Origin: Steroidobacteraceae bacterium
GTDB taxonomy: Bacteria > Pseudomonadota > Gammaproteobacteria > Steroidobacterales > Steroidobacteraceae
Direction: 5' to 3'
Assembly: GCA_041395505.1 (NCBI GenBank)
Contig: JAWLAG010000002.1
Span: 555,556 to 619,555 of the forward strand
DNA: 64,000 nucleotides
Part shown: positions 13,301 through 64,000 of the stretch, one piece after another
How the letters are laid out: each line of letters begins with the position of its first letter
How positions within the stretch are numbered: position 1 is the stretch's first letter
The notes under the pieces: model-generated
Told to the model about the DNA's origin: nothing
The model's input: only the letters and a program-made list of their open reading frames with translations
Database searches by the model: none
Position numbers and translations under genes: made by a program

Positions 13301-13352
13301 ACAGCAACCCTCTGGCGCCGTATCCCGTTCAATCACTCCGGAGATTCATCGA

Positions 13353-14501
13353 ATGCAATTGACCCGCCGACAGCTGCTCGCCTGCGCGAGCGCCACGTTG
13401 CTGACACCCGCTGCGTTCGCACGCCCCAAGCAGCCCTACACCTCCTCCGCGCTCGGACTTGTCATGAAGGCCAATGCGAAAAGCAGGACGCACAGCTACT
13501 TCCTCGTCGTCAGCAGCTTTGAACGGTATTTTCTCGGCAGGCGCAGGGCGTCGTTGACAGGCTATCTCGTGAGCATCGGCACACCGCAGCTGGTCGCCGC
13601 CGCCAACTCGGCATTGCAGACATTATCCGTTGGGGTCAACGTGGATCCCGATGCGGTGCGCGCGCGTATCCGCGCCGCAATCGAACGAAATGTCTCCGGC
13701 GCGATGATGCAGGAGCTGCGGCCGGAGCAGCTCACACGCCTGCTTGGAGAACAGGGCTTTCGCACCGGCAATACATCGCTGGCGGCCGAGGGCGACTTCA
13801 TCGGCGGCGTACTGACGGCGGGTGGGGCCTTCGCCGGCGTTGCGGGCAGCAGCGCAGCCTCTACATCGGTTGCCGCCATCGCCACCGCGGGCGGCGCGGC
13901 GGCCGGAGGAGCCGGCATCGCTGCTGCATCGGCCGGGTATGGCGCATACCAGGTCGCGGGTGCATTTCTTGACGCGGTTGGCGCAAACGATGGCTATACG
14001 CTCGGTGACCTGATTTACGACCTGTTGCACCCTGGCGAAGAAGGCAACCGGGTCTGGAGCAGCGATTCGTCGAGCCAGGGCCCTGCATCGGGCACGACAT
14101 TGCCGCCCGGCTTCGGCCCTGAGTCCGATCCAGGCCGCAACATCGTGTTTCAGATCGTCATGGGGCTTGCAACCAATTCATCGCTCGGTCGCAACGTCAT
14201 TGCACGCCCGCCAACGCTCGCAAGCACGCCGATTCCAGGTGCCGACGGCGTGACCAACCTTGCGCTACTGTTGCGATTCGACGCAATGCTCGGTGGCGCG
14301 TATTTCAAATTGGTGCAGCGCTCGCTGAATGCGCGGCAAAACGGCACCGCTACGACGGATCCGGATATCACCCAGGGCACGGCCAACGGACCTATCATGG
14401 TCGACTACTCGAAGTGTCCGCCTGCCGATGTCAATGCGATGCGCCTTTCAGCCTACCTGGCGTCGGCAAGCGGCGCATTGACCCGCATCGCCGCACGCTA
14501 G
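13353..14501 (+). CDS. Hypothetical protein with Tat-like signal and Gly/Ala-rich segment
   Basis: GGAG 10 nt upstream. MQLTRRQLLACASATLLTPAAFA resembles a twin-arginine signal. Internal low-complexity GA-rich stretch. Confidence 0.5.
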   Translation: MQLTRRQLLACASATLLTPAAFARPKQPYTSSALGLVMKANAKSRTHSYFLVVSSFERYFLGRRRASLTGYLVSIGTPQLVAAANSALQTLSVGVNVDPDAVRARIRAAIERNVSGAMMQELRPEQLTRLLGEQGFRTGNTSLAAEGDFIGGVLTAGGAFAGVAGSSAASTSVAAIATAGGAAAGGAGIAAASAGYGAYQVAGAFLDAVGANDGYTLGDLIYDLLHPGEEGNRVWSSDSSSQGPASGTTLPPGFGPESDPGRNIVFQIVMGLATNSSLGRNVIARPPTLASTPIPGADGVTNLALLLRFDAMLGGAYFKLVQRSLNARQNGTATTDPDITQGTANGPIMVDYSKCPPADVNAMRLSAYLASASGALTRIAAR

Positions 14502-15818: not shown

Positions 15819-15928
15819 CGCCCTTTTCCGGGATACGGTGCGGCATTGTAACGGGATGGCCACCGCCGCCAACTGCCGATCCGACGGGCCGGTGGGATAT
15901 CATGTTCGCTTGCGACTGGAGAATCCCG

Positions 15929-16315
15929 ATGAGCTACCACTTCTCTAAAACGGTTAACCTGCCCTTCGATCAGGCGATCGCCAAAGTCACGGCGGAACTT
16001 GCCGCCCGCGGCTTCGGCGTGCTGACCGAAATCGACGTCGCCGCGACGCTGCGCAAGAAGATCAACGTCGAGTTTCGGCCCTATCGAATCCTGGGCGCCT
16101 GTAATCCGCGCTTTGCCTACCAGGCGCTGTCGGCGGAGGACAAGATCGGCACCATGCTGCCCTGCAATGTCATCGTCCAGGAGCTGGGGCCGGGCCGCGT
16201 CGAGGTATCCGCCGTCGACCCGATTGCATCCATGCAGGCAGTGCGTAACCCGTCGCTCGAACCCATTGCCACGCAAGTGCAGGGCCTGCTCAAGGAGTGC
16301 GTGGAAGCCGTGTAA
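15929..16315 (+). CDS. DUF302-domain protein
   Basis: GGAG upstream. MSYHFSKTVNLPFDQAIAKVTAELAARGFGVLTEIDV..ILGACNPRFAYQAL is characteristic of the DUF302 family. Confidence 0.75.
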   Translation: MSYHFSKTVNLPFDQAIAKVTAELAARGFGVLTEIDVAATLRKKINVEFRPYRILGACNPRFAYQALSAEDKIGTMLPCNVIVQELGPGRVEVSAVDPIASMQAVRNPSLEPIATQVQGLLKECVEAV

Positions 16316-16366
16316 CCGATTGGCCAGTTCTCGGGCCATTGTTCGTCGTGTGAAGGGATTTGCATC

Positions 16367-41638: not shown

Positions 41639-41759
41639 TCCGCGTGTAATGCAAAGGGCCGACTCGCGCCGGCCCCGCTCCTTGAGGGCAATTTTACCGC
41701 GCCGGGCGCGGCGCTGGCCAGATACAAAACGACTGCAATCAGATAACCTTCAGCGCCTC

Positions 41760-44700: not shown

Positions 44701-47270
44701 GCGCAATCTCGGTGCACAACGCGCGCGAGCACAACCTGCGGCAGATCGACGCCGTGATTCCACATGGTCGTTTTACGGTGTTGACAGGCGTGTCCGGCTC
44801 GGGCAAATCGACCCTTGCCTTCGACATCGTATTCAACGAGGGACAGCGTCGTTATCTCGAATCCCTGAACGCCTATGCGCGCCAGTTCGTGCAGCCTGCA
44901 GCGCGGGCGGATGTCGATTCGGTCACGGGCATACCGCCGACGGTCGCCATCGAGCAGCGCACCAGCCGCGGCGGCCGTCGCAGTACCGTGGCGACGCAGA
45001 CCGAGATCTACCATTTCCTGCGCCTGCTGTTTCAGAAGCTCGGTACGCAATATTGTCCCGATTGCGACGTTGCGATCAGACCGCAGAGCATGCCAGCGAT
45101 CGCCGCACAGATACTGCGCCGGCATCGGGGAAGGGAAATCACGCTGCTCGCGCCACTCGTGGTCGGCCGCAAGGGCTACTACACGGACCTCGCCGCCTGG
45201 GCGCTGCGCAAGGGCTATGGCCATTTGCGCGTCGATGGCGAGTTGACGCCGACCGCCGCCTGGCCGCGGCTGCGCCGCTACGAGCAGCACGACATCGAAC
45301 TGCCTGTCGCGACGCTGCGTCCCGACATACGGCGGGAAAAGGCCTTGCGCGATTCGCTCGCGGTCGCGCTCGATCATGGCAAAGGTATCGTGCAGGTACT
45401 TGCGGCGGGCGGGCGGATGACGACCTATTCGACCTTGCGCGCCTGTCCTTCCTGCCAGCGCAGCTTCGCGGAACTCGATCCCCGGCTGTTCTCGTTCAAC
45501 TCACCCCAGGGGTGGTGCCCGGCCTGTCGCGGCACGGGTTGCGTATCGAACGACGATGCCGAGGAGCCGCCCGACCCTGAAGGCGCCGCAATCTGCGAGC
45601 AATGTAACGGCAACCGCTTGAATGAAGTCGCGCTCCATGTGCGACTCTCCGGCCACTCTATCGCCACCTGGACTGCCGACACCGCGAGCGAGTGCCGGGC
45701 GAGACTTGGGCGTGTGAAACTTGATCGACGCGATCGCCTCATTGCCCGTGACATCCTTCCCGAGATCCGCGAGCGACTGGGATTTCTCGAGCGCGTGGGC
45801 CTAGGCTACCTGTCGCTGGCGCGTGCGGCGCCGACCCTGTCTGGCGGCGAGGCGCAGCGCATCCGTCTCGCGGCTCAACTCGGGTCGAACCTCAAAGGCG
45901 TTTGCTACGTGCTCGACGAACCCACGATCGGCCTGCATCCGCGCGACAACCGCATGCTGCTCGATGTGCTGGCACGCCTTGGACGCAACGGCAATACGCT
46001 GCTGGTCGTGGAGCACGACGAGGACACGATTCGAAGTGCGGATCACATCATCGACCTTGGGCCCGGCGCCGGCACGCGCGGTGGGCGGGTGATTGCAAGC
46101 GGCAGCCTGCAGCAATTGATGCGCACGCCCGAGTCGGTCACGGGCCGCGCGATGAAGGCAGCCGCGCAACGCGGCATCACGCTGAACGAAAACGCACCGC
46201 GCAGTGCGCGGTACCTGCGCATACGTGGCGCCAAGCGCAACAATCTGCGCAATATCGATGTCGACATCCCGCTGCATGCGCTCGCGCTGGTCACAGGTGT
46301 TTCCGGCTCGGGCAAATCGACACTGACCCGAGGCACGATCTACGAGAACCTGCTGCGCGTCGTCGGCAAACGCAGCACGCCGAAGACGTGGCTCGGTTGC
46401 AGGCGCGTATCCGGCTACGACAGCATAGACCGCGTGCTGGAAGTCGATCAGACGCCTATCGGCAAGACGCCGCGGTCCTGCCCCGCGACCTACGTCGGGA
46501 TCTGGGACGAGATCCGTCGGGTGCTGGCCAATACCACTGAAGCGCGGCTGCGCGGCTATAGCGCCAGCCGCTTCTCCTTCAATACGCCCGGTGGCCGCTG
46601 CCCGACCTGCGAAGGCCAGGGAATGAAGCGGATCGAGATGAGTTTTCTTCCGGACGTGAAACTGCCCTGCGATGCCTGCAACGGCCTGCGCTTTGATCCG
46701 CAGACACTGCAGGTGCGGCACCGCGGCCTGAACGCCGGCGAGATTCTGGCGATGGAAGTGGAGAGCGCTTGCGAGTTCTTCGCTGCCCACCGGCGCATCG
46801 CCGCGACACTGCGGCTGATGGTGCAGATCGGCCTGGGTTACCTGACACTCGGACAACACAGTCCGACGTTGTCGGGCGGCGAGGCGCAGCGAATCAAGCT
46901 GGTAGCGGAGCTTGCGCGCGCCGAAGGCAGCCGCCAGCACACCCTGTACCTGCTCGATGAGCCGACCGTCGGCCTGCACATGGCCGATGTCGAGCGACTG
47001 CTCGACGTGCTGCGCCGCCTGGTGGCAACCGGCAACAGTGTGCTCATTGTCGAGCACAATCTGCAGGTCATCGCCGCAGCCGATCATGTCATCGACCTTG
47101 GCCCGGAAGGTGGCAGCAACGGCGGCCGCATCGTCGCGAGTGGCACGCCGCGCCAAATCGCCTCGAACCGTGCTTCACATACCGGACGGATACTACGCCG
47201 GCACCTGCACAATCCGCGTGGCACGGGGCTATCGCGCGGAAGCGCCCGCGGGCGGGCGGTCTATAATTGA
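41760..47270 (+). CDS. uvrA: Tandemly duplicated UvrA-like ABC ATPase (excinuclease ABC subunit A paralog, about 1,836 aa)
   Basis: Four UvrA-type nucleotide-binding domains, each with Walker A GVSGSGKS(S/T)L. They sit at aa 30, 690, 1050 and 1500 counted from the ATG at 41760. Four ABC signature/Zn-finger modules ([66 protein letters not shown]). In effect two complete UvrA units fused head-to-tail. Confidence 0.85.
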
Positions 47271-50298: not shown

Positions 50299-53133
50299 TC
50301 AGCCGGTCGCCGTGTACGGCAGCGACTCCTGGACGCTCGGTCGCTGCGCCAGCAATGTACTGATCTTTCGCGCCGGCAGGGGCCGCGACAGGAGATGTCC
50401 CTGGATGAAATCACAGCCATGTTGACGCAGGAACTCCAGCTGCTCGGCCGTCTCGACTCCCTCGGCAACGACCTCCTTGCCGAGCGCATGGGCCATGGTG
50501 ATGATCGTGTCGGTAAGCGTGGCCGACGCGCCATCGGCTGGCAGGTCCTCGACGAAACTGCGGTCGATCTTGACCACCGCGATCGGGTGCTGCCGCAGAT
50601 AGTTCATGGCCGAATACCCAGTGCCGAAATCATCGAGCGCGATACGTATCCCCAACTTTGCCAGACGCTCGAGCGCATCGCCAGCCGCGCTGGCTGCGAG
50701 CACGGACTCGGTCAACTCGAATTCCACGCAACTGGGTTCGATGGAAAATCGCTGCAGAATACTTTCCGTCAAACCGAAGAACTGCGGGCTATCGAGCTGC
50801 TTGGCGGAGATATTGACGGCCAGCCGGGCCGGCGCAATCTCCTGCGCTCGCCATTCGGCATACTGTTCGCAGGCTGTTTCCAGGACCCAGGCGCCGATGT
50901 CGATGATCAGGCCCGACTGCTCGGCGGCTGGTACGAATTCCTTTGGATCGCGCGGTCGGCCCCGGCTCGCCTGCCAGCGCAGCAGGGCCTCCACCGCGAC
51001 GATTGCGCCGTTGCTGCTCGCGAACTGCGGCTGATAATAGAGCGCGAATTCGCGTCGCTCGAGGGCGCGATGCAGGCCGCTGGTCGTCGCGGTTATTTTC
51101 AGGTCCCGCATGCGCGGCTCGAAGAACACGGCGCGCCCGCGACCACTGTCCTTGGCGCGATACATCGCAAGGTCTGCGTTGCGCATGGCGTCCTCGGCAC
51201 TGGTCGCATCATCGGGCAGCATGGTCACGCCGATACTGGCACCGATCCGGTAGTCCCTGCCGCCGATGCTCACGGGCTTGTGCAGGCTGTGAACGATACG
51301 CTCCGCAACGACCTGCGCGGCCTGTGGATCGGCAATTTGCCGCAGGATGATCGTGAATTCATCGCCACCGATACGCGCGACCGTGTCGCCGTCCTTGACG
51401 CAGCCACGCAGACGTTGGGCCGCAATGGCCAGCACCTGATCGCCCGCAGCATGTCCCAGGCTGTCGTTGATCTTCTTGAAGTGATCGAGATCGACGAACA
51501 GGAGAGCGCTGCGTGCCGAGCCGCCGGCAACCGCGGCGACTTCCTGTTCCAGCCGGTCGGCGAGCAGCAGGCGGTTCGGCAGCCCAGTCATGCCATCGTA
51601 GTGGGCCTGGCGGTAGAGAACCGCATCGCGCGCCTGCTTCGACAGCGCGGCCGCGAGACGTCCGGCGAACTCCTCGACCTGTCTGGCGGTATCGGGTACG
51701 ACGCTGGGTGCATCCTGGAACCCGACTGCCAGCAAAGCACGTAGATCGCCTTCGACATTGACGGGCCACATCCAGAAATACTCGCTGCCGGCCTCGCGCA
51801 ACGGCGCAATGACGCTGTGGCGTGGTTCTTCGCAGCGCGCAATGGTCAGTCCCTGCGGTGAATTCTCGACCATTGGCAGCAGTTCGGCATCGATGGGCAC
51901 ACGCGACATTTCGGCAGCCGCACGCTGGGCTGTCAGGAAATAGTTGCGCCCATAGGAGCGCGTATTCGGATCGAGCAGCACGATGCATGATGACGCAGCA
52001 CCGGTCGTTCGCAGCAATCGCTCCAGCAGGCCATCGACGATGGCCTCGACATCATCGGCTGCGAGCAGCATCCGGTCGACTTCAGCCAGGGTTTCGAGCG
52101 AGCGGAACTCGCCCTCGATGCGCGTCGCGGCGCGGTTGTAGGCATCGACTGCATCGCTGATCTCATCGGCCCGACGCGGCTCCAACCGCGCCTGCTGGTG
52201 CCGGCCCAGCCGGTCGAGCGCCGTCTGCAGCGCGGCCAGCGGTGCAACGTACAGACCGGTGAGGTAGATGACCGCGGCACCCACCGCCAGCAGCAGCGAC
52301 AGCACGGCGGCGAGCGTGATCAGTACGCCACGGGCGGTGAGCAAAGCGCCAGGCGTATTGGCCTGCATGGTGAGCACGGTCAGCGATTGCGGCGCAACGA
52401 GCCCCGAGGGCAGTTGCAGCAGAGCGCTGTGACCCAGCCACTCCCTGCCGCCCGCCTGCCAGCCGAAGCGTTCGGCCGAGGTCTCGAATGCCGCTGGATC
52501 GAACTGCGCACTGACGCCGGTTGGCAGAACCGCGTCGCGCGGAAAACCCGGCGGCGTGAGCAGCGCGCCAGCACCTGCGACAAGTACCAGACCGAATGTG
52601 GGCGCCTGGTCCGGGTCGCTGCCCAGGAGCCAATGCCTGTCGAGTTCGAAGATCGCGAGCCGCGCCTCGGCGGCCGGGCCAATCCTGCGCACGACGAAGA
52701 TGCTGGTATCGCTGTCGAACTGCGCCGTCACCAGCGCAGCCGTATCGACGTTGCGCAGCACGTCCTCGCCAGCGCCGCTACGCATCAAGGTTCGCGCCAC
52801 GGTACCGTTGTGATCTGCCGGCACGACGGTGACCGAGCTGAATGCCGGCGAGACGATCACGTTGGCGCGCAGCACCCGATCGTCACGCCCCGATGCACCG
52901 GCCACCAGCACGGCACTCACGTCACGCGCCGCCGCCAGGCGACTCTGCAGGCCCGAAACGGCTGCTTCGCTGCGCGCCCCGAGCTCACTTTGCATTCGCC
53001 CGGACTCATCGACCGATCGCTGCCATGAGATCAGTCCGAAGAGCACCAGCAGCGGGGCGCATGCGGCCAGGGAGATGACTTCCGCCATCCGCTGGCCGAT
53101 CGATGTTCTCAGATGGCGAAGCAGCTTCTGCAT
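50299..53133 (-). CDS. Membrane sensor diguanylate cyclase/phosphodiesterase (periplasmic sensor-TM-HAMP-GAF/PAS-like-GGDEF-EAL)
   Basis: N-terminal TM, periplasmic region and second TM. GGDEF motif RIGGDEFTI. EAL motif EALLRW with downstream DDFGTGYS and catalytic E/Q residues. Confidence 0.85.
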   Translation of the reverse strand: MQKLLRHLRTSIGQRMAEVISLAACAPLLVLFGLISWQRSVDESGRMQSELGARSEAAVSGLQSRLAAARDVSAVLVAGASGRDDRVLRANVIVSPAFSSVTVVPADHNGTVARTLMRSGAGEDVLRNVDTAALVTAQFDSDTSIFVVRRIGPAAEARLAIFELDRHWLLGSDPDQAPTFGLVLVAGAGALLTPPGFPRDAVLPTGVSAQFDPAAFETSAERFGWQAGGREWLGHSALLQLPSGLVAPQSLTVLTMQANTPGALLTARGVLITLAAVLSLLLAVGAAVIYLTGLYVAPLAALQTALDRLGRHQQARLEPRRADEISDAVDAYNRAATRIEGEFRSLETLAEVDRMLLAADDVEAIVDGLLERLLRTTGAASSCIVLLDPNTRSYGRNYFLTAQRAAAEMSRVPIDAELLPMVENSPQGLTIARCEEPRHSVIAPLREAGSEYFWMWPVNVEGDLRALLAVGFQDAPSVVPDTARQVEEFAGRLAAALSKQARDAVLYRQAHYDGMTGLPNRLLLADRLEQEVAAVAGGSARSALLFVDLDHFKKINDSLGHAAGDQVLAIAAQRLRGCVKDGDTVARIGGDEFTIILRQIADPQAAQVVAERIVHSLHKPVSIGGRDYRIGASIGVTMLPDDATSAEDAMRNADLAMYRAKDSGRGRAVFFEPRMRDLKITATTSGLHRALERREFALYYQPQFASSNGAIVAVEALLRWQASRGRPRDPKEFVPAAEQSGLIIDIGAWVLETACEQYAEWRAQEIAPARLAVNISAKQLDSPQFFGLTESILQRFSIEPSCVEFELTESVLAASAAGDALERLAKLGIRIALDDFGTGYSAMNYLRQHPIAVVKIDRSFVEDLPADGASATLTDTIITMAHALGKEVVAEGVETAEQLEFLRQHGCDFIQGHLLSRPLPARKISTLLAQRPSVQESLPYTATG

Positions 53134-54470: not shown

Positions 54471-55811
54471 ATGAGGCGATTTGCGGCGTTGATCTGCGGC
54501 ATGCTGACCCTGTCAGCCGCCGCCTGGGCCCAGGACGACAGCGAGCGGCTGGCCCTCTATCAGCAATTTCGCGCCGAATTCGATGCGCGCCGCTTCGAGG
54601 ACGCACTGGCGCGGGCCAACGAGCTGGTCAGTGCGACCGAAAGCACTTTCGGCAACGATGCGCTCGAGCTGGCCATCCCGCTTACCAACGTCGGCACGAC
54701 CGCGCTGCGCCTCGGCAACCTGGGTCTTGCCGAGACATCCTATCTGCGCAGCGTCACGGTGCTCGATGCGAATACCCGCGGCGCCAATGCCGATCTCATC
54801 CCGCCGTTGCATGGACTCGGCCTGACCTACCTGGCGAAGAATGATCCGACGAGCGCCGCGATCGCACTACGCCGCGCGGTCGATCTGTCGCGTAACCTCA
54901 ACGGCCTATACAACATCGGGCAGCTGCCGATCGTGGAGTCGCTGATCAGCGCCGAGGTCGCGCTGAATCAGCTTGCGGACGCCGAGAAGGAGCACCAATA
55001 CGCCTATCGCATCGCGGAAACCAACTACGGCGCGACCGACCCGCGCATGTTGCCCGCCATGGCGAACTACGCGGCCTGGTTCGAGTCCATGGGCCGCTTC
55101 TCGACGGCACGGCGCATGTACGCGCAGGCACTCGGCGTTGCCGAGAACAGTCTGGGCAAAGCCGCCCTCGAGTCGGTGCCGCCATTGCGCGGGATCGCCC
55201 GCACCTACATGCTCGAATTCCTGCTCGGCTACGAGGATCCCGAGGCCAGCGCCGCTGCGCAGGATCCGTTTGCATCCCAGAACCAGACGGGCGCGCAACT
55301 GCAGCGGGTCAATACCGACGGCGAGAAAGCGCTGCTGATTGCGCTCGATCGCATCAACAAGGCGACACCACCCGATCTCGGATTGCGCGGCCAGACCCTG
55401 CTCGACCTCGGCGACTGGTACCTTGTGGGCGCCAATTCCGCCAAGGCGCTCGGTGTCTACCAGCAAGCCTGGCCCGACCTGGTGGCCAGCAACCAGTTGG
55501 ACCTGGTCGCGAAGCCGCGCCAGCTCGCCTACAAGGCGCCGTCGAGTTCCATCACGCGCTCGAGCTACGACCCCGACAAGGAGGATCTTCGGGTGGTCGA
55601 AGTGAAATGCAGCGTGAGCGAAACGGGCAAGATCGGCGATTGTGAGTCGATGCGCAGCGAGGCGTCGGACGCCCAGGAGCGCTCGGTGATTTTCGCGGCG
55701 AAGAAATCCCGCTATGCGCCACGCATGGAAAACGGGGTAACGGTACCGACCGAAGGCATCATCGTGCGCGACTCGCTCGTGGTCGCCAAGCCCGCGCCAC
55801 CGAAATCTTGA
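54471..55811 (+). CDS. Secreted TPR-like protein with TonB-C-like C-terminal domain
   Basis: Signal peptide MRRFAALICGMLTLSAAAWA. Helical-repeat body. C-terminal 80 aa (VVEVKCSVSETGKIGDCESMRS..YAPRMENGVTVPTEGIIVRDSLV) resembles a TonB/TolA C-terminal fold. Confidence 0.55.
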   Translation: MRRFAALICGMLTLSAAAWAQDDSERLALYQQFRAEFDARRFEDALARANELVSATESTFGNDALELAIPLTNVGTTALRLGNLGLAETSYLRSVTVLDANTRGANADLIPPLHGLGLTYLAKNDPTSAAIALRRAVDLSRNLNGLYNIGQLPIVESLISAEVALNQLADAEKEHQYAYRIAETNYGATDPRMLPAMANYAAWFESMGRFSTARRMYAQALGVAENSLGKAALESVPPLRGIARTYMLEFLLGYEDPEASAAAQDPFASQNQTGAQLQRVNTDGEKALLIALDRINKATPPDLGLRGQTLLDLGDWYLVGANSAKALGVYQQAWPDLVASNQLDLVAKPRQLAYKAPSSSITRSSYDPDKEDLRVVEVKCSVSETGKIGDCESMRSEASDAQERSVIFAAKKSRYAPRMENGVTVPTEGIIVRDSLVVAKPAPPKS

Positions 55812-55816
55812 CGCTG

Positions 55817-56611
55817 CTATCGCCCTGCGAGTCGTTCCTGTGGTGGTGGCACGGGCGCAGGCTCCGCGGCCGGCGGCACCGGTTCGGGTAGGGATGCCGG
55901 CGGCGACACAACACCAGTCGCCGGTGCCGTGTCGATGATGGGTACGGCCTCGATGCGATTCGCCCTCGCGCCAGTCGCACTCGCCAGCAGGGGCGCGCCA
56001 TCGCGCAACTGCGCCGCCAGCGTCATCTCGGGAAACTGCACCAGGAATTTCGCGACGGCATCGCGCATGGCGCGCTGGCTGGCGAGGATCAGCGGATTGC
56101 CGCTCGAGACACCCTTCGCGGCACTGTTGCCATAGCCGGTGAGCGTCAGGCTATCAACGGCTGCGCCATCGGGCGTCAGGACGTTGAATCGATAGCGAAT
56201 GGTGACGGCATAGTAGCCGCCACCGGTGTCCTTCGCGGTCGCGAAGGAGAACTGTTCGATCCTGGGTTCGAAAATCGCGCGTAATCCGCTCGCGGCATGA
56301 GCCTCCTCGAGCGTCGAGAACTCGGCGACATCCTTGAATTCCGCGCCGAACAAAGCGCGCACCATGGCAAGGTGGCCCGGTCCAAGTTCGATGGACCAGG
56401 GCACGCCCCAGCGCGATTCCTTATGGACGAAATTGCGCATGTCGGGCTGCACGAGCAGGCCGACGCGTGCTTCGATTGGATTGACGAGCGCACGCGGCAA
56501 CGCCACGGCAGGTGCGATTTCGACGCCGCCGCAGCCGACGATCAGCGCCGCGGCGAGGCAGGCGCCGACCGTTGCGCCAACGCGGCTCAGCGCTCGCCGC
56601 TGAGACACTTG
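55817..56611 (-). CDS. Lipoprotein with Pro-rich C-terminus (last gene of the MotA/VWA/FHA operon)
   Basis: Lipobox ..AAALIVGCGG. C-terminal PPASLPEPVPPAAEPAPVPPP. Start uncertain: ATG at 56692 would overlap the upstream gene by 105 nt, GTG at about 56611 is preferred. Confidence 0.5.
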   Translation of the reverse strand, partial: QVSQRRALSRVGATVGACLAAALIVGCGGVEIAPAVALPRALVNPIEARVGLLVQPDMRNFVHKESRWGVPWSIELGPGHLAMVRALFGAEFKDVAEFSTLEEAHAASGLRAIFEPRIEQFSFATAKDTGGGYYAVTIRYRFNVLTPDGAAVDSLTLTGYGNSAAKGVSSGNPLILASQRAMRDAVAKFLVQFPEMTLAAQLRDGAPLLASATGARANRIEAVPIIDTAPATGVVSPPASLPEPVPPAAEPAPVPPPQERLAGR

Positions 56612-57639
56612 CGCACCCCGCCAAATTCGACCGCAAAGCCGCAGGCGTCGTCCTGGGTGATGCCGACGAAGGTACCGTCGTTCTGCGCGCACATACTGCG
56701 CATTAAGGCGGAAAACTTGATGTTTGTAAATGCCGTGGGACCGGCCACGGCGGGGAATCCAATGGCATGGATGCGCACCATCTTGCGGCCGCCCTTGCCG
56801 GGCAGATTGACCGCCGCCACGGCATCGAGCGCCGTCTGGATGTAATCGCCGGTGTATTCATCGCCGAGCACATAGAGGCTGATGCGCTTGTCCGGCGCCC
56901 AATATCGCCTGATGGCCTCCACGATGCCTTCGACCGGGCTGGAATTGCTGTACGGCGCCCAGTCGGGCATGCGCTCGAGGATGCGCCGCCGCTGCCGGTC
57001 GTTGTCCTCGAGCCACTTGCCGCGGGTGCCCTCGAACATGGGCCGGCCCTCGTCGTCCATGACCTGCAGTCCCTTGACCTTGGGATAGATATCGAGGATT
57101 TCAGTCATCACACCGGCCGCCGTATCCCAGTGCTGGCCGTGCATGCTGTTCGAGGTATCGATGATGAAAATGATGTATTCGCTGTCGACTGGAATGCCGC
57201 CGATCGCGTCCGAACGCAACGGCCGGTCGGGTACCTTGGCTTCGAGCAGCTTGACGTCGGCCGTCAACTGCCGGTAGGCGTCTGCCAGCTCGTTCTCGAC
57301 GATATCGCTCACGCTCGCTTCGTTGCGCGATGTCTTGAACTCACCGCGCACGCTGCTGATATCGCCGGCAAGACGGCTCAGGCGCCTTTTCTCGATCGTG
57401 AGCTTGTCGATGCGACCCTGCAATTCGCGGTTGAGTTGATCGGTCTCGCCGCGCAACGCGAACAGCTCTTCCTGCAGTTTCTTCAATTGCTGGGACAGGT
57501 CCTGTCGCGATTTTTCGATGATCACGGGCTGGCCGAATTCCGACAGCACGAGAAGCAGGATAACCGCGCCGAAACCGCAGCAAATGCAGTCGATGAACGA
57601 CAGGCTGATGATTTCGGTCTCGCGTTGTCGCCGCTTCAT
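56587..57639 (-). CDS. ExbD/TolR-like TM helix + coiled coil + VWA-domain protein (paralog 1)
   Basis: N-terminus MKRRQRETEIISLSFIDCICCGFGAVILLLVL has a single TM helix with buried Asp (compare ExbD/TolR NxTPxIDVxxVLL). Coiled coil follows. VWA domain with MIDAS DTSNS (FIIDTSNSM) and downstream Thr/Asp. Confidence 0.8.
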   Translation of the reverse strand: MKRRQRETEIISLSFIDCICCGFGAVILLLVLSEFGQPVIIEKSRQDLSQQLKKLQEELFALRGETDQLNRELQGRIDKLTIEKRRLSRLAGDISSVRGEFKTSRNEASVSDIVENELADAYRQLTADVKLLEAKVPDRPLRSDAIGGIPVDSEYIIFIIDTSNSMHGQHWDTAAGVMTEILDIYPKVKGLQVMDDEGRPMFEGTRGKWLEDNDRQRRRILERMPDWAPYSNSSPVEGIVEAIRRYWAPDKRISLYVLGDEYTGDYIQTALDAVAAVNLPGKGGRKMVRIHAIGFPAVAGPTAFTNIKFSALMRSMCAQNDGTFVGITQDDACGFAVEFGGVRKCLSGER

Positions 57640-58724
57640 GGCCAGTCCCGCGATGGCATCACGAAACTGCCGCCGCTCTTGCGCGCGACCATCCAGTAAC
57701 GATGTGTCGCAGGCAGATCGCCTTTCATGGGCAGCAAAACGACGTCGATGGGCGTCTTTGCGGGCAGGTCACGCGTTGCGGCATCGAACAGTTTGGCGCG
57801 ATCGCGCACGGAGATGTATTTGGCGAATCCCGGCGGGGTGCTGCCCTGCGTTGGCAGGCCATCGGTGATCAACACGATCTGATCCGGCGCAGGCTTCAGG
57901 TCCTTCAAAGCCGCCAGCGCATTGACCAGGCTCGTGCCCTCCTCCGGTACGAGTTCACGGACGGCGTCGCGCAAGCGTCCGCGTGTGGCGCGGTCATCGG
58001 CACGCAACCACTTGCCTGCAGTCTCGCCGAGCACGGCCTTCGAATTGACGTTGAATGCATACAGCTGGTAGCTCGATTCGCCGGGCAACTGCGTGCTGAG
58101 CCAGTCGACGATGCGCACTGCGCGGCGCCACTTCTCGGTGCGCCGGCGCGTCTCAGGCGCGGTATTGCGCAAACGAAGGATCTCCACGACGTCGTCGTGC
58201 ATCATGCTGGCCGAGCGGTCCAGCAGGATCAGGATTCGCTTGCCACGCAAATTAAGGCCATTGATATAGCGTCTCGGACCGCCACGCAGCTTGCCCGTCG
58301 CCGAGGGTAGATCATCTTCGCCCGCACGCGCCGACAACCGCCGCGATTCCTCCTCCAGCGAACGCACGTCGGCCTTCAGTTTCTCGATGTGCTCGCGTCG
58401 CGCCAGCGTCTCCTTGTCGAAGACGGACGACTGCTCGCGCCGTTCCTGGATCTCCTGCACGAAGCGTCGCGCGCGCTCGGCGGCGGATGCGGTTTCACTG
58501 GTGGTCTTCTCGAGCGTATTGCGCAACACGACCAGATTCTTGGTGCCTTCCAGCACTTCGATTTCGAGACGGCTGACTTCGGCCGCGAGATCGTCGGTAC
58601 GCCGGATACGCTCCTGGCCGCTTTGTGCGCTGATGATGGTATAGAAAAGGATCACGGCACCGAAGCCGCAGCTGATGCAGTCGAGGAAGGACAGGCTGAA
58701 GACTTCGACCTTGCGGCGGGGCAT
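57636..58724 (-). CDS. ExbD/TolR-like TM helix + coiled coil + VWA-domain protein (paralog 2)
   Basis: N-terminus MPRRKVEVFSLSFLDCISCGFGAVILFYTII. Coiled coil. VWA MIDAS LLDRSASM, downstream T and D (VLITDGLPT). Its stop overlaps the paralog-1 start (ATGA). Confidence 0.8.
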   Translation of the reverse strand: MPRRKVEVFSLSFLDCISCGFGAVILFYTIISAQSGQERIRRTDDLAAEVSRLEIEVLEGTKNLVVLRNTLEKTTSETASAAERARRFVQEIQERREQSSVFDKETLARREHIEKLKADVRSLEEESRRLSARAGEDDLPSATGKLRGGPRRYINGLNLRGKRILILLDRSASMMHDDVVEILRLRNTAPETRRRTEKWRRAVRIVDWLSTQLPGESSYQLYAFNVNSKAVLGETAGKWLRADDRATRGRLRDAVRELVPEEGTSLVNALAALKDLKPAPDQIVLITDGLPTQGSTPPGFAKYISVRDRAKLFDAATRDLPAKTPIDVVLLPMKGDLPATHRYWMVARKSGGSFVMPSRDWP

Positions 58725-58726
58725 GC

Positions 58727-60046
58727 TCAGTCGCCAGCCAGAAACTGCGCATAGATCGGCGGACTGCCGATGCGCAGCAGGTCACCGGCATGCAGCGGCG
58801 TGCGCTTCGCGACGCGTTGGCCGTTGTGGAAGCTGCCGTGGCGACTGTGATCCACGAGGTAGTGCCGGTCGCCATCGGCCTCGATGGTGCAGTGATGGCG
58901 CGACACGCCCTGCGCGTTTGCCGGCAACGGAATATCGCAGCCCTCGCGCCCAAGGGTCCTGTGTTCGGCAGCCAATTCGAAACGCTGGCCGTTGATGGCG
59001 ATTGCGGTGGGCGTTGCCGGGGTCGCACTTCGAATCGGCGTCCAGGCCGGCGCGAACACGGGCTCTGCCAGTGTCGGCACGGCAAGTGCCAGTGCGAGCC
59101 CCGAACCTGCGACCGCTTGCCGCGATGCCGCCATCGCCGCGACGCCTTGTGGCAGCAGTGCCATTCGACCCGCGCAGACCGCCGCGATCGCCACCGGGAA
59201 ACCTGGCCAGTGCTCGCAGTGCCGCGGCAGGAGAAGCGAAACGTCGCTCACGGCGCCGAGCTCCGCCAGCACTTGCTGCACGCGCTCATAGAGTGGCGCT
59301 GCGGCGTACTGCAGGTCGGCCGCCGCAATCCTGGCGGTGAACGCTCGTCCCTGCGAACTCAGTTGTACCTGTGCCAATTGCCCGTGCGCCAGACGCTCCA
59401 GCACACGCGGCAGCGCATCGTATAGCTGTTGTTCGAGCTGTCCGTGATGGAGAGGATCGAAGCGGGTCTGGCGCACCATGCTGGCCGCGATGCACTCGAG
59501 CCACAGCTCCTGCATGCGGATCAGCCCGATGCCCTCCACGGTTACGGATCGCAGCCTGCGCGCAGCCGCGCCGGTTTCTACCAGGCTTGCAGCAACGTGA
59601 TGAAGACCCACTTCGAGCACGATCGCGGCACCTTGCACGCCGCTTGCAGCCGCGCTGAGTGCAGCAGCGTCGCACAGTTGCGGCTCGGGCAACTCGAGCG
59701 CCGCGAACAGTCCGGGAATCACGCCGAGCGGAGCGATGTCGAAGCGCGCCGGGACGGCGACGACGTACTGGTCGTCGCTGCCGCCGTAGCTGGCAAGACG
59801 CCTGCGTAACTCGCTCGCAAGCAGCATGTTGTTGGCATCATCGTCGCCGTTGCCAAGCTGCAGGCTTTGCCAGTGATCGCTGCTGACCCGTTCCGGCGCC
59901 TCGCGCAGCAGGGATTGCGCGTCATCGCCGAGGCTGCCGTTGCCGGCCGAGCCATTGTCGACGAGGCTCGGTCGGCAATCGAGCAACACGCCGTCGCTCG
60001 CGATGGCATACGACGCGTCGTCGACATGCAGACCGAGGCAGGCCAT
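58727..60046 (-). CDS. Actin/Hsp70-like N-terminal domain + C-terminal FHA-domain protein
   Basis: C-terminal FHA (LGREGCDIPLPANAQGVSRHHCTIEADGDRHYLVDHSRHGSFHNGQRV..GDLLRIG). N-terminus LGLHVDDASYAIASDG..YVVAVPARFD..LCDAAALSAAA resembles phosphate-1/adenosine motifs of sugar-kinase/Hsp70/actin ATPases (tentative). Start set at MACLGL so the gene abuts motA-like without overlap. Confidence 0.75.
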   Translation of the reverse strand: MACLGLHVDDASYAIASDGVLLDCRPSLVDNGSAGNGSLGDDAQSLLREAPERVSSDHWQSLQLGNGDDDANNMLLASELRRRLASYGGSDDQYVVAVPARFDIAPLGVIPGLFAALELPEPQLCDAAALSAAASGVQGAAIVLEVGLHHVAASLVETGAAARRLRSVTVEGIGLIRMQELWLECIAASMVRQTRFDPLHHGQLEQQLYDALPRVLERLAHGQLAQVQLSSQGRAFTARIAAADLQYAAAPLYERVQQVLAELGAVSDVSLLLPRHCEHWPGFPVAIAAVCAGRMALLPQGVAAMAASRQAVAGSGLALALAVPTLAEPVFAPAWTPIRSATPATPTAIAINGQRFELAAEHRTLGREGCDIPLPANAQGVSRHHCTIEADGDRHYLVDHSRHGSFHNGQRVAKRTPLHAGDLLRIGSPPIYAQFLAGD

Positions 60047-60051: not shown

Positions 60052-60891
60052 TCAGTGCGCCTGCATGTTGCGGATGACTTTCTGATCGAGATAGGTTTCG
60101 GCATCGTGCACGAGCCGCTCCTGCACGAGCTGCAACTGGTGCAGCAGGAACATCAGCAGTATCGACAGCAACAGCGCGATCAGCGTTGAATTGAATGCCA
60201 CACCGAGTCCGGCGGTGACGCCGCTGATATCGCCCGATACAGCCTTGTGTGCCTGCGAGAGTGCATCGCCGATGCCGCGCACCGTACCGATGAAGCCGAT
60301 GGCCGGTATGGCCCAGGCGATGTAGCGCAGCATCGACAGCTCCGAATCGAGACGCTCGGACTCGGTCTCGCATACCGCGTGGGCCACATCGGACACGTCC
60401 TGGACGTTTCGCGTCGCGCCAAACCGTCCGAGTGCGGCAAGGAGTGCGCGCGGCACGAGCGCGTTGCGTTGCTCAGCCGGCAGCGCCTCGAGTTGCCGCG
60501 AGTACTCGCGCGTGTCCTCGGGCAGTATGCGCATGCCCTCCGGAATGCGCAGTACTTCCCCGTCCAGGATCTGCCGCTCGCGACGCTGCGACAGGGCCTT
60601 GTAGCCCATGATCGCAAGGGCCCAGAGCATGAGGATGATCTCGGATTCCTGCTCGTAGTCCTTGATGAGGATGTAGGGACTGCGCTCGGCGACGAAATTC
60701 GGGTCCTGGTCCATGGCGAGTTTCTGCGCGGCCATGATGGCATTCGCCGTCGGTCGCACATGCAGGACATAGATCGTGTGTACCAGCAGGATCGCCAGCA
60801 TCAGCGCCGCTACGTTGAATGAAAACTCATTCGGATAGCGCCGCAGCTGCAGCAGATTGGCCGGACTGGAAATTGCATTCGTGTCATTCAT
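60052..60891 (-). CDS. MotA/TolQ/ExbB-family proton-channel protein
   Basis: 3-4 TM helices with conserved C-terminal block AIPAIGFIGTVRGIGDALSQA..GVAFNSTLIALLLSILLMFLL. Confidence 0.85.
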   Translation of the reverse strand: MNDTNAISSPANLLQLRRYPNEFSFNVAALMLAILLVHTIYVLHVRPTANAIMAAQKLAMDQDPNFVAERSPYILIKDYEQESEIILMLWALAIMGYKALSQRRERQILDGEVLRIPEGMRILPEDTREYSRQLEALPAEQRNALVPRALLAALGRFGATRNVQDVSDVAHAVCETESERLDSELSMLRYIAWAIPAIGFIGTVRGIGDALSQAHKAVSGDISGVTAGLGVAFNSTLIALLLSILLMFLLHQLQLVQERLVHDAETYLDQKVIRNMQAH

Positions 60892-60906: not shown

Positions 60907-61182
60907 TTAGATGTCGATTGGAAACGAGACGTTATTGTCAGCCGAATCGCGCATGCTCGGGTCGCTCTCCGCATCCGCGCCCTGGCTCAAGGGTTCGGCC
61001 GGCTTTTCCTGGGCCTGCGGCTCCGCGGTATCCGTTTTCTCCACGGGCTCCTGCTGTTGCGCCTGTGCTTCCTGGGCCAGGAGGCGCGTACCGTAGAGAA
61101 CGGCGGTGCCACAGAGCAGCGCCGCAAGGGCGGTCAGGGCGATCAACGCCAGGGTCTGGCGCTCAGCGCGACGCAAGGGCAT
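60907..61182 (-). CDS. Small single-TM protein with acidic/Gln-rich tail
   Basis: 91 aa, TM LALIALTALAALLCGTAVLYG. Packed between motA-like and the upstream FHA-PEGA-FGE gene (20-nt overlap). Confidence 0.45.
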   Translation of the reverse strand: MPLRRAERQTLALIALTALAALLCGTAVLYGTRLLAQEAQAQQQEPVEKTDTAEPQAQEKPAEPLSQGADAESDPSMRDSADNNVSFPIDI

Positions 61183-63652
61183 TGCTGTCCTCCTCGGTGT
61201 ACTGCACGCCAGCGGGATCAGCGTAGCGCGCTATCCGAAACCCAAGATTGTTGGCTGCGACATCGCCGGCCTCGCGCCAGGCCAGGCGCAGCTCGGCGGT
61301 GAGCGTCGTGCGCCAGCTTGCGCCGCGAAACACATGGCTGCGCCCACTCTCCGGGCCCAGCGGGTCGATACTCGCCTCTCGATCCGGAAACGCGGCGTAA
61401 CGATCATTGACCCACTCGGACACGTTGCCGCCCATGTCGAAGAGTCCGGAGGGATTGGCTGGAAACCGGCCGGTTGGTGCGACTGCCTTGTACTCGTCAC
61501 TGTGGCCCGCAAGCGCCGAGCCGAGAATGCCGCCCGCCTCGCTGCCACCGAGATTGTCCCGCCCGCTCGGCACGGGCAGGCTGTTCCCCCAGGCATAACG
61601 CAGGAGACCGCCCGGGGACACGCGCGCCGCGTACTCCCATTCGGCCTCGGTCGGCAGACGATAGCCATCGCCGACGGGCGTACGCAGCACCCAGTGGTCC
61701 GAACGCCGCTCGTAGGCTTCGGCGAGTCCGGCTTCACGTGACAACCAATTGCAATACTCGACGGCCTCTGCCCAGTCGACACCGGTGACGGCCTGGGAGT
61801 CGAGATCGATGCTGAGATCGCCGACGATGCCCGACTTGTGATCGGGGCGAAATCGCCGAAATTCGCCGTTGCTGACTTCGGTCACGCCGATGTAGAACGG
61901 GCGCTTCAGCGTGACCGCGCGCAGCGACTCATTGGGACGTCGCCCCTGTTCGCGCCGCGCGCTGCCCATGTTGAACTGACCGCCCGTGATGAGCTGCAAG
62001 GCAGCACCCGTGGGCGCGCGGATGGTTCGCGCCAGGGCTTCGCGGCGCGCACCGGGACGGAACAGCTGGTAATCAACCTGGCGCGCCACGCCCGGTAACA
62101 GCGCCACCTTCTGCGTGAGGGGTTCGAAACCCTCGGCGCGCAACTCCAGCTGGTAATCGCCTGCCGGCAGATCAACGCGAAGCGGCGCGCGTCCACGGAC
62201 GACACCGTTGATGAATACATCGGCCGCGGCGGGTTCGCCGGCTATATTCAGACTCACGTTGAGCGCTTCGAGTGCAACCTTGAGCTGCTCGGTCTTGCCT
62301 GCCACTGCCGTGAACTGCACGGCGCGGCTGCGATAGCCACGCCGCGACACCAGCACCGGATAATCGACTCCCGGTGCGAGACTGACAGTCAGTGGCGTGC
62401 GGCCACGATACTTGCCGCCGACAGAAACCTCCGCCGCGGAAGGCTGACTGCGAACCTCGAGCAGTGCATCCGGTGCGCCAAGATCGATGGGACCAAGATC
62501 CATCGTCCGGCCCGCCTGCACCACGACGCTGCTGTCCCAGGCACGGGCGTCGCTCGCCGTGATGCGCAGCCTGTGTACGCCGGCAGGCAGCTCGAGACGC
62601 GCCGGAAGCGCTTGCGCCGGTTGGTCGTCGACGCGAAGCAGGGCGGCCGCGCTGCTGCTCGAGACATTGACGACGCCCCAGTCGGGTTGCATTTCGATTG
62701 CGATCGTCTGTCGCAGGCCACCACCCTCGACGTCGATCTTGCCGATCGCATCGAGATAGCGCTTGGCCCGCAGGGTGATGGTATGCGCGCCCGGCTTGAT
62801 CTCGAGCTCGCCCGGCACTTTCCCCGCCTCGGCACCATCGACGTAGGCGAGCGCAGCGATGTCGGCCGTGTCGACCGTCACGAGACCCGGCTTCCTGACG
62901 AGCCGGATCCGGACCGGTGCGGTCATGCCGTCGCTCGCCACGATCGCGACTTCGCCATCGTAATAGCCCTCGCGGCGCGCGCGCAGCTGGTGTCGACCTG
63001 CAAATACGAACAGGGTGTCGCCGGCATGCCAGCTGAACAGGCTGCCTGTCGCGCGAACGTTGAGGTCATTGGGCGCCAGATCGAGCGGCACGCGAATCAG
63101 CGCGGCAATGAACAGCGTCGTTGCGAGCGCCGCGGCGGAGACCGCCGCCAGCACCCAGCGCAGGCGTTGGGTCGGCGGTGCGGCTGAGCGGCGACGAGGG
63201 AGCGTTGTGCCGACCGGAAGCTGCACCGCAATGGGCTTGATGGCGATCGACTCTTCGCTGTGGGTCACCACGCGAGTCGTAGCGGGAAGTTGCCCGGGCG
63301 CCTGGGTGCGATTGGCAACATCGTGCTCGACGTCGAGGGCGAGTGTGCCGTCCGCCTCCTGCAAACGAAGTTGCACGCGGCCGCAGTGAACGACATCGCC
63401 CGGCGCGAGATCGTGGTGATCATCGAGACGGTCGCCATTGACGTCGACTGCGGGGGCGCCGGCGAGCTTCACGAGCCGCAGCCGACCGTCGATGACTTCG
63501 ATGTTGAGCATCGGCCCGGTCGGGCCGGGCACGACGATCGTCGCACCGGCCCCGCCGATGGTCAGCGGCAGCCGCATCCGCCGCTGCCCCTGCGGCTCGA
63601 TGATCGTCAGGTCGGTGAGTTCGCGCATTGCGGGACGCGCGCCGGTGGTCAT
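61163..63652 (-). CDS. FHA + TM + PEGA repeats + FGE-sulfatase (SUMF1-like) domain membrane protein
   Basis: N-terminal FHA-like (LPLTIGGAGATIVVPG..LAPGDVVHCGRVQLRL). TM (WVLAAVSAAALATTLFIAALI). Several PEGA-like repeats (VSVGGKYRGRTPLTVSLAPGVDYPVLVSRRGY, VFINGVVRGRAPLRVDLPAGDYQLELRAEGF). C-terminal FGE-sulfatase fold (GVDWAEAVEYCNWLS..YRLPTEAEWEYAAR..MGGNVSEWVND..GFRIARY). Confidence 0.8.
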   Translation of the reverse strand: MTTGARPAMRELTDLTIIEPQGQRRMRLPLTIGGAGATIVVPGPTGPMLNIEVIDGRLRLVKLAGAPAVDVNGDRLDDHHDLAPGDVVHCGRVQLRLQEADGTLALDVEHDVANRTQAPGQLPATTRVVTHSEESIAIKPIAVQLPVGTTLPRRRSAAPPTQRLRWVLAAVSAAALATTLFIAALIRVPLDLAPNDLNVRATGSLFSWHAGDTLFVFAGRHQLRARREGYYDGEVAIVASDGMTAPVRIRLVRKPGLVTVDTADIAALAYVDGAEAGKVPGELEIKPGAHTITLRAKRYLDAIGKIDVEGGGLRQTIAIEMQPDWGVVNVSSSSAAALLRVDDQPAQALPARLELPAGVHRLRITASDARAWDSSVVVQAGRTMDLGPIDLGAPDALLEVRSQPSAAEVSVGGKYRGRTPLTVSLAPGVDYPVLVSRRGYRSRAVQFTAVAGKTEQLKVALEALNVSLNIAGEPAAADVFINGVVRGRAPLRVDLPAGDYQLELRAEGFEPLTQKVALLPGVARQVDYQLFRPGARREALARTIRAPTGAALQLITGGQFNMGSARREQGRRPNESLRAVTLKRPFYIGVTEVSNGEFRRFRPDHKSGIVGDLSIDLDSQAVTGVDWAEAVEYCNWLSREAGLAEAYERRSDHWVLRTPVGDGYRLPTEAEWEYAARVSPGGLLRYAWGNSLPVPSGRDNLGGSEAGGILGSALAGHSDEYKAVAPTGRFPANPSGLFDMGGNVSEWVNDRYAAFPDREASIDPLGPESGRSHVFRGASWRTTLTAELRLAWREAGDVAANNLGFRIARYADPAGVQYTEEDSNALASR

Positions 63653-63659: not shown

Positions 63660-64000
63660 TCAGATGGCTTCGTCGCAGCGCACGATGACCGTCTGAACGC
63701 TCTCTCCCGGCGTTACGACTATCTCGCGGCGCACGTCGCGGTAGCCGGTACGCGTACCGACCACGACATAACGTCCGGGTTTCAGTTCGACTTGTCGTCG
63801 CATGAAGCTTCCGTACTGCCCGACACGCGTGATGCTCACCGTGGTCGCGTCGTCAGACTCGAGCACGACCGATACTGGTTTGTCGTATTCGGGCAGCAAA
63901 AGTTCGATTCGGGCGATCTGCGAGCGCAGCACGGGTCCCTGGGGACTGATGCCGCGGGCCTGCTCGAGGAGCGAGTCGGCCTCGTTGCGGACTTCGGCAG
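63660..64000 (-). CDS. PEGA-domain protein, N-terminal part outside the window (partial)
   Basis: C-terminal sequence ..VSITRVGQYGSFMRRQVELKPGRYVVVGTRTGYRDVRREIVVTPGE is a PEGA repeat. The frame stays open to the window end. Confidence 0.5.
   Translation of the reverse strand, partial: AEVRNEADSLLEQARGISPQGPVLRSQIARIELLLPEYDKPVSVVLESDDATTVSITRVGQYGSFMRRQVELKPGRYVVVGTRTGYRDVRREIVVTPGESVQTVIVRCDEAI

Follow-up and report, generated by a model that had tools for sequence, protein, structure and literature searches.

A candidate Ser/Thr phospho-switch at a putative TolQ-like/vWA motor operon of Steroidobacteraceae and the membrane protein with FHA-like, PEGA and FGE-like domains encoded within it

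The ABC transporter Rv1747 of Mycobacterium tuberculosis and the PpkA–Fha1 system of type VI secretion are membrane machines regulated by Ser/Thr kinases (STKs): the acceptor threonine lies in a disordered linker beside an FHA domain, and assembly is brought about by an FHA protein that reads the phosphorylated site. Judging from these mechanisms, a similar signalling logic is likely at a locus of a Steroidobacteraceae bacterium of the Gammaproteobacteria, which is the subject of this article. The stretch of DNA analysed, hereafter the window, spans 64,000 nucleotides (assembly GCA_041395505.1, contig JAWLAG010000002.1, positions 555,556 to 619,555) and harbours a gene for an 829-residue protein, the FHA/PEGA/FGE protein, that combines an FHA-like domain, a single transmembrane (TM) helix, five PEGA repeats and a domain with the fold of the formylglycine-generating enzyme (FGE). 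The gene sits in an operon that also encodes a TolQ-like channel, an Hsp70-like protein with an FHA domain of its own and two vWA proteins. Unlike in Rv1747 and PpkA–Fha1, the reader FHA domain is located on the Hsp70-like protein, the FHA domain of the presumed substrate is degenerate and the machine is a TolQ-like/vWA motor. The reading favoured here, which we consider moderately probable, is that the FHA/PEGA/FGE protein is a fixed component of a motor operon under the control of a phospho-switch composed of a kinase, threonine 116 (T116) of the protein and the FHA domain of the Hsp70-like protein.

A core consisting of a TolQ-like protein and paired vWA proteins with a transpore helix (TPH) has been put forward as a new force transducer, motor-driven and without a known function (Mol Biol Evol 2025, PMC12204202). 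The operon in the window contains such a cluster: a tolQ/motA-like gene is present, tolR/exbD is missing and two heterologous membrane-tethered vWA proteins carry a conserved Asp in the N-terminal helix. A 5:2 complex and proton-driven rotation are putative in this instance. The locus departs from the published description in its additional genes: the words 'sulfatase', 'PEGA' and 'kinase' occur nowhere in that paper, and neither do FHA or Hsp70-like proteins.

Other described systems resemble individual parts of the FHA/PEGA/FGE protein. YscD/EscD of type III secretion and EssC/YukB of type VII secretion similarly display a cytoplasmic FHA fold devoid of phosphothreonine-binding residues, a single TM helix and beta-rich periplasmic modules, whereas the present locus has no secretion ATPase, ring-building motifs or secretion genes, and the protein bears five PEGA units, an FGE-like domain and a threonine motif after the FHA-like domain. 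STKs with PEGA or FGE-sulfatase sensors also couple a TM helix and a PEGA/FGE ectodomain to Ser/Thr phospho-signalling, but here the kinase is encoded as a polypeptide of its own, which has a TPR and PEGA-like ectodomain, and the FHA-like domain takes the place of the kinase. PorK/GldK of type IX secretion and gliding is a non-catalytic FGE-fold protein encoded together with a MotA/ExbB-family motor. GldK (TIGR03525) is the best NCBIfam match of the FHA/PEGA/FGE protein (E 8e-26, 91 bits against a cut-off of 350) and PorK structures are matched at E 1e-11; in contrast to PorK/GldK, the protein has no lipobox and is attached to the inner membrane by way of a PEGA stalk, and the operon contains no homologues of PorL, PorM or PorN. 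With FGE/SUMF1 the fold is shared and homology is evident (human FGE, 2afy, E 4e-19), whereas the catalytic residues C336 and C341 are found opposite T782 and T785. As an FGE, a PorK/GldK protein, an EgtB/PvdO enzyme or a canonical FHA adaptor, the protein failed in each case at a defining feature that was tested. Literature searches combining FGE-sulfatase, PEGA and FHA, or FHA, MotA, vWA, kinase and Hsp70, retrieved no paper.

An FHA fold inside the cell and an FGE fold outside

The original prediction, made from the letters of the DNA, had placed the gene exactly where it lies (Table 1), with its ATG start and 829 residues, and had proposed an FHA-like domain, one TM helix, PEGA repeats and a C-terminal FGE domain, an order confirmed by Pfam, an iterated family hidden Markov model (HMM) and AlphaFold2 (AF2). 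The protein is identical to an NCBI entry from a metagenome-assembled genome (MAG) of a Steroidobacteraceae bacterium; approximately 92 full-length homologues (800–840 residues, 33–49% identity) derive almost entirely from Steroidobacteraceae MAGs or metagenomes. The full-length AF2 model, based on an 88-sequence alignment, shows a mean predicted local distance difference test (pLDDT) value of 87.8 and is organized into an all-beta region (residues 14–110), a disordered one (113–165), a helix (164–183), five beta-sandwiches and the FGE fold. Residues 164–186 are the only segment with a Kyte–Doolittle value above 1.6 and, as five Arg precede this segment and an acidic stretch follows it, the positive-inside rule applied to the sequence leads one to expect the N-terminus inside and the C-terminus outside, in agreement with the original prediction. 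The gene product is a real inner-membrane protein whose FHA-like domain faces the cytoplasm and whose FGE-like head, not an enzyme, lies outside. PADLOC models gave no match to it.

The Pfam search that had been suggested as a check detected PEGA and FGE-sulfatase in the protein and no FHA (PF00498) match; the one hit of the N-terminal 166 residues taken alone is to Yop-YscD_cpl, which belongs to the FHA clan (E 0.012, 16 bits, under the cut-off of 33). A profile of 44 family N-termini retrieves from the PDB FhaA/Rv0020c (3po8, E 2.9e-5) and EssC (5fwh, E 1.3e-4), as well as the solved FHA domains of Rv1747, Ki-67, GarA and Rad53, and hhalign pairs the domain with the canonical FHA domain of the Hsp70-like protein from this operon at 96.7% probability (E 3.4e-10). 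An AF2 model of residues 1–135 (pLDDT 87.6) returns exclusively FHA domains among the top 50 Foldseek matches in the PDB, with Rv1747 FHA-2 in first place. Together with the all-beta AF2 model, these matches establish that the domain has the FHA beta-sandwich fold.

By its residues, however, it is not a canonical phosphothreonine reader, and in this respect the original prediction of a phosphothreonine-binding FHA domain did not hold: all three binding motifs are gone, as GR is replaced by GG, a three-residue deletion occupies the place of the GVSRxHC loop and the DHSRYGT loop is variable across the 44 sequences. G22, R24 and D86 are nearly invariant in the family. The FHA-like domains of YscD and EssC/YukB are not known to bind phosphothreonine and act as phospho-independent scaffolds; by analogy, the domain considered here may play the same part. 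The N-terminal profile also detects very large proteins in a representative library, each with 5–8 tandem FHA-like repeats: P0097 (5734 residues), P0098, P0109, P0116, P0117 and P0141.

The predicted periplasmic portion is well defined. PEGA (PF08308) is matched at E 4e-34 (116.9 bits against a cut-off of 20.8), and the iterated HMM resolves units at residues 187–251, 258–320, 328–386, 398–461 and 468–530. FGE-sulfatase (PF03781) covers residues 554–809 (E 9e-45, 153.7 bits against 23.3). None of the 88 family members has a Cys in the catalytic FGE region, the two catalytic positions being filled by Thr or Ser and by Phe or Val. Since the copper-binding Cys pair is absent from 88 of 88 sequences, the domain is to be regarded as a binding module and not an enzyme, a possibility that the original prediction had allowed for; Cys-less FGE-fold domains are widely employed as binding modules (PMC7159879). 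NCBIfam scores lie far below the cut-offs for PvdO (58 against 500), EgtB (30 against 360) and SenA (42 against 420), and Pfam finds no DinB-like iron-binding domain in the protein. Given the missing Cys pair and these equivalog scores, 'SUMF1/EgtB/PvdO family nonheme iron enzyme', as NCBI calls the protein, is a misleading label. A hypervariable FGE domain of the type diversified by diversity-generating retroelements was considered and ruled out: the C-terminal region is conserved, with invariant G804, F805 and R806, and no reverse transcriptase is encoded nearby. The PEGA stalk and FGE head would be well placed to reach peptidoglycan or the outer membrane; alternatively, the head may contact the metal-ion-dependent adhesion site (MIDAS) domains of the vWA proteins or a lipoprotein.

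Kinase, linker threonine and canonical FHA domain across loci

The same gene order recurs in approximately 100 homologous loci from Steroidobacteraceae, other Gammaproteobacteria (Pseudohongiellaceae, Luminiphilus, Lysobacterales, Pseudomonadales and SAR92), a 'delta proteobacterium' MAG and Sneathiella, of which strain HT1-7 has a version without the kinase. These loci were collected with alignments of the full-length FHA/PEGA/FGE protein and of the MotA-like protein, the second of which gave a much cleaner sample: the search with the first was dominated by generic FGE-domain proteins, and only its first nine loci are family members. A metagenome scan gave matches in at least 600 stretches. 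Wherever enough flanking sequence is available, a gene of the FHA/PEGA/FGE type lies directly upstream of the tolQ-like gene, save in L008, in which an insertion of ∼4.7 kb (12394–17139) separates the two. The protein appears to be a constant partner of the TolQ-like/vWA motor cluster that has previously not been described as such.

A tie to Ser/Thr kinase signalling had been predicted from the FHA domain, found in the place of the kinase to which PEGA and FGE modules are normally fused, with the kinase encoded elsewhere. The tie is borne out and the location is not: in orthologous loci the STK gene is directly upstream, its kinase domain fused to a TM-TPR protein or encoded beside one. In L001, L002 and L005 this gene encodes a Pkinase-TM-TPR protein of 725–817 residues and often overlaps the start of the FHA/PEGA/FGE gene. 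The suggested survey for an STK or a PP2C phosphatase, carried out in the 10-kb flanks of homologous loci, revealed the adjacent STK and no PP2C. Only the 3' end of the upstream gene lies in the window, with its stop codon 7 nucleotides before the ATG of the FHA/PEGA/FGE gene; in tblastn, the translation of the last 339 nucleotides (63660–63998) is 59% identical to the C-terminal part of the STK of L001 (E 1e-39). As a query, the 112-residue C-terminal fragment retrieved short fragments only, none of them identical. Among the loci, some kinases are fused to the TPR protein, others have an open reading frame to themselves (L153, L159, L167), and that of L166 occurs with no TPR gene at all. The catalytic loop of active kinases varies (HGDIK, HHDIK, HRDLKC) and some kinase reading frames are split.

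The candidate phospho-acceptor is T116 (codon 63305–63307), within a conserved motif at the start of the linker that joins the FHA-like domain to the TM helix. A threonine is present at this position in 87 of 88 family members, preceded by Asn at –2 in 84 and followed by Pro at +3 in 85; the sole member without it is the protein of the kinase-less locus L003. The AF2 pLDDT falls below 50 over residues 113–165, a stretch that spans T116, and on this model the threonine should be accessible to a kinase.

The third element is carried by the Hsp70-like protein. A profile of its N-domain matches Hsp70 nucleotide-binding domains in the PDB (E 1e-7), and its FHA domain, at residues ∼350–439, is recognized by Pfam (E 1.3e-15) and displays the motifs LGR, GVSRHHC and DHSRHGS. 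When ∼45 assessable loci were classed by kinase status, FHA domain of the Hsp70-like protein and N-terminus of the FHA/PEGA/FGE protein, the three elements were found to vary together. In 33 loci the kinase is active and the N-terminus can be assessed; all of them possess both the FHA-like domain and the Thr, the latter embedded in motifs located just past the last FHA-like strand (GNxTxxP, YVTxPP, GDTAPP), and the FHA domain of the Hsp70-like protein is canonical (SRxH) in each of the 28 kinase loci in which that gene can be assessed. Eleven loci lack a kinase or carry a pseudokinase, and the Thr is found in none of them. In 10 of the 11 the Hsp70-like gene is missing or its FHA domain is degenerate; in eight the N-terminal domain of the FHA/PEGA/FGE protein is absent entirely. 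The remaining three, all kinase-less, retain the FHA-like domain and have lost the Thr, which is replaced by a gap in L003, Leu in L010 and Asn in L135, with the following Pro-Pro kept. As the nearest relatives of these three are all kinase-bearing (L135 is 60–62% identical to L153 and L159), the losses are separate events. Prediction in the opposite direction also succeeded: from the Thr in the divergent homologues P0091 and P0081, a kinase and an FHA gene were anticipated and found in both, in different gene arrangements.

Single loci deserve mention. L132 and L160 harbour a pseudokinase (upstream gene at approximately nucleotides 5400–7700), whose catalytic loop reads AHGNLSP and whose DFG motif has become GFG; in both loci the FHA domain of the Hsp70-like protein is degenerate and the FHA/PEGA/FGE protein is without the FHA-like N-terminal domain. 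In L002, a long-read assembly, the Hsp70-like/FHA gene (13624–14984) shows an apparent frameshift; a degenerate FHA domain was ruled out for this locus, because a canonical one (GISRSHC) is encoded in another reading frame.

A putative phospho-switch and its rivals

These observations are consistent with the following scheme. The core of the machine would be a TolQ/MotA-like channel with a heterologous pair of proteins, each consisting of a TolR-like helix, a coiled coil and a vWA domain, forming a putative proton-driven 5:2 motor. The lineage to which the window belongs would have acquired a phospho-switch composed of a membrane STK fused to the upstream TM-TPR protein, T116 as the acceptor and the FHA domain of the Hsp70-like protein as the reader. 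A periplasmic signal, sensed by the kinase through its own periplasmic TPR and PEGA-like ectodomain, would activate it; the kinase would then phosphorylate T116 in the disordered linker next to the FHA-like domain. Phosphorylated T116 would serve as a docking site for the Hsp70-like ATPase, which would bind through its canonical FHA domain and so be brought to the motor complex. The FHA-like domain of the FHA/PEGA/FGE protein would itself be a phospho-independent scaffold. The original prediction had envisaged a trans-membrane target or adaptor of a kinase: the notion of a target survives, as the linker Thr tracks the kinase, whereas the FHA reader sits on the Hsp70-like protein.

Several points weigh against this scheme. 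Pro at the +3 position relative to the phosphothreonine is not a classic FHA preference. L135 has no kinase nearby and yet has kept a canonical FHA domain. Many FHA domains of the Hsp70-like proteins have another residue in place of the GR arginine, which renders phosphothreonine binding by these domains uncertain too. Kinase-less loci that retain the FHA-like domain are few (three). The presence in this genome of the kinase domain, beyond the edge of the window, is deduced from orthology. Lastly, the co-occurrence of kinase and FHA domain taken alone could be explained if the FHA domain bound the autophosphorylated kinase.

This last point leads to the chief rival: kinase and FHA domain would form a pair that works without the FHA/PEGA/FGE protein, either because the FHA domain binds the autophosphorylated kinase or because the kinase phosphorylates the Hsp70-like protein, and T116 would be a structural residue lost by coincidence. 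Binding of an FHA domain to its autophosphorylated cognate kinase is common in Actinobacteria (PknB–GarA, PknH–EmbR, PknF–Rv1747), structures of this kind are among the Foldseek matches, and the joint presence of kinase and canonical FHA domain in 28 of 28 loci fits such a pair. It accounts for the kinase–FHA link, but not for the repeated and specific loss of the Thr: three independent kinase-less lineages have shed this residue while retaining the surrounding domain and the Pro-Pro, the Thr is otherwise all but universal in the family, and both predictions founded on it, those for P0091 and P0081, were confirmed. We therefore regard this explanation as rather unlikely.

A classical FHA adaptor, as first envisaged, in which the FHA domain of the FHA/PEGA/FGE protein would bind a phosphothreonine, for example on the autophosphorylated kinase, seems quite improbable. 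The fold is confirmed, the domain accompanies the kinase in 33 of 33 loci and has often gone from kinase-less ones, and G22, R24 and D86 could form a non-canonical site. Yet the three canonical motifs are missing and the Pfam FHA score is under threshold, the domain persists in the kinase-less loci L003, L010 and L135, and its closest matches in sequence and structure include the FHA domains of EssC/YukB, which are not known to bind phosphothreonine. That the protein is a periplasmic formylglycine-generating or sulfoxide-synthase-type enzyme, as its NCBI name and source annotation, the strong FGE-sulfatase match and the homology to human and bacterial FGE would have it, is barely credible, given the Cys pair missing throughout the family, the low GldK, PvdO, EgtB and SenA scores, the lack of a DinB-like domain and the common use of Cys-less FGE folds in binding.

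The operon, its surroundings and its significance

The operon in the window is tightly packed on one strand and comprises, in order, the 3' end of the STK/TPR gene, the FHA/PEGA/FGE gene and the genes for the 91-residue TM protein, the MotA/TolQ/ExbB-family channel, the Hsp70-like/FHA protein, the two vWA proteins and a last protein (Table 1). A small open reading frame also occupies the position of the 91-residue gene in L001, L002, L004, L005, L166 and L167. The MotA-like channel shows 37–76% identity across loci; a weak PADLOC match to ZorA (E 9e-5) was put down to common membership of the MotA/ExbB family and set aside. In both vWA paralogues the Asp of the transpore helix (SLSF[IL]DC) is invariant and the DxSxS MIDAS is intact, which makes periplasmic metal-dependent ligand binding plausible. 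No Pfam family matches the last gene, whose predicted reading frame overlaps the preceding gene, so that the true start is probably further downstream.

Table 1. Position of the gene, its domains and the neighbouring genes of the operon in the window
Feature	Position	Strand	Description
Upstream gene, 3' end	63660..64000	-	C-terminal PEGA/CarboxypepD_reg-like beta-sandwich of TM-TPR protein, with N-terminal STK domain in orthologues; runs off the window edge
FHA/PEGA/FGE gene	61163..63652	-	829-residue bitopic inner-membrane protein: FHA-like, linker, TM, five PEGA, FGE-like
FHA-fold domain	63323..63616	-	Residues 13–110; without phosphothreonine-binding residues
Linker motif HDVANRTQAP	63296..63325	-	Family consensus HLxGNxTxxP; conserved; start of linker (residues 111–163)
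TM helix	63095..63163	-	Single, residues 164–186, N-terminus inside; Kyte–Doolittle, AF2 helix 164–183
PEGA beta-sandwiches	62063..63094	-	Five in tandem, residues 187–530, predicted periplasmic; Pfam, HMM, AF2
FGE-sulfatase-fold domain	61223..62026	-	C-type-lectin-like, residues 543–810; without catalytic Cys pair
Small TM protein	60907..61182	-	91 residues, single TM, acidic Pro-rich tail; ATG overlaps 3' end of FHA/PEGA/FGE gene by 20 nucleotides; ribosome-binding site GAGGAGG
MotA/TolQ/ExbB-family channel	60052..60891	-	279 residues; PF01618, E 4e-15
Hsp70-like/FHA protein	58727..60046	-	439 residues; like Hsp70 nucleotide-binding domain, with C-terminal canonical FHA at ~58742–58990
vWA paralogue 1	57636..58724	-	TolR/ExbD-like transpore helix SLSFLDC, coiled coil, vWA, MIDAS DRSAS
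vWA paralogue 2	56587..57639	-	TolR/ExbD-like transpore helix SLSFIDC, coiled coil, vWA, MIDAS DTSNS
Last gene	55817..56692	-	Orthologue of 245-residue gene of L001; tblastn E 4e-73 over 55937–56554

Orthologous loci extend the operon by two or three genes upstream, one of them with a lipobox. This conserved gene, two positions upstream of the FHA/PEGA/FGE gene (6193–7521 in L001, and orthologues), encodes a protein of 380–440 residues with the lipobox LxGC and many invariant residues, for which neither a Pfam family nor a solved homologue was detected by sequence; L003 carries a second copy downstream. A radical-SAM gene is found a few genes upstream of the cluster in L001 (3464–4558), L002 (3419–4504) and L166 (5300–6376). 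It is flanked by an MFS transporter gene in L001 and L002, while L005 has the MFS gene only, an arrangement that may reflect synteny alone.

On the other side of the operon, the window encodes a 446-residue protein with TPR_12 and TonB_C domains (54471–55811, plus strand) that is convergent to the last gene. The same arrangement is observed in L001 and L005, and a TPR_12-only protein is located there in L002; a TonB C-terminal domain beside a TolQ-like cluster may be no coincidence. A 944-residue HAMP-GAF-GGDEF-EAL protein of cyclic-di-GMP signalling (50299–53133, minus strand) is encoded a few kb from the operon. Further away, a 1873-residue UvrA-like protein (41649–47270, plus strand) contains duplicated ABC ATPase, UvrA_inter and UvrA_DNA-bind domains, and has a syntenic orthologue of 1840 residues in L005.

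A broader picture can be sketched tentatively, as a possibility held with less confidence than the phospho-switch. The cluster of 10–11 genes would specify an uncharacterised proton-driven trans-envelope machine made up of the lipoprotein, the TM-TPR protein, the protein with five PEGA units and the FGE head, the small TM protein, a pentamer of the TolQ-like protein and an axle formed by a TolR-like/vWA heterodimer. The FHA/PEGA/FGE protein would provide a periplasm-spanning stalk and binding head, in a role akin to that of PorK, and in one lineage the STK would gate the assembly or the activity of the motor, acting through phosphorylated T116 and the Hsp70-like ATPase that reads it with its FHA domain.

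The motor proposed in 2025 had no known function, partners or phenotype, and the present analysis adds fixed partner genes to it, the PEGA-stalk/FGE-head protein being the most prominent. The database name 'nonheme iron enzyme' is corrected for a family of some 90 or more proteins, and another case emerges in which an FHA-fold domain without phosphopeptide binding would be a scaffold of an envelope machine. The kinase, the acceptor Thr and the FHA-Hsp70 reader would constitute a three-part phospho-switch whose parts are gained and lost together. If true, this would be the first control of a 5:2 motor by Ser/Thr phosphorylation, and the interest of the locus resides mostly in this connection of a 5:2-type motor with Ser/Thr phosphorylation, which can be put to the test.

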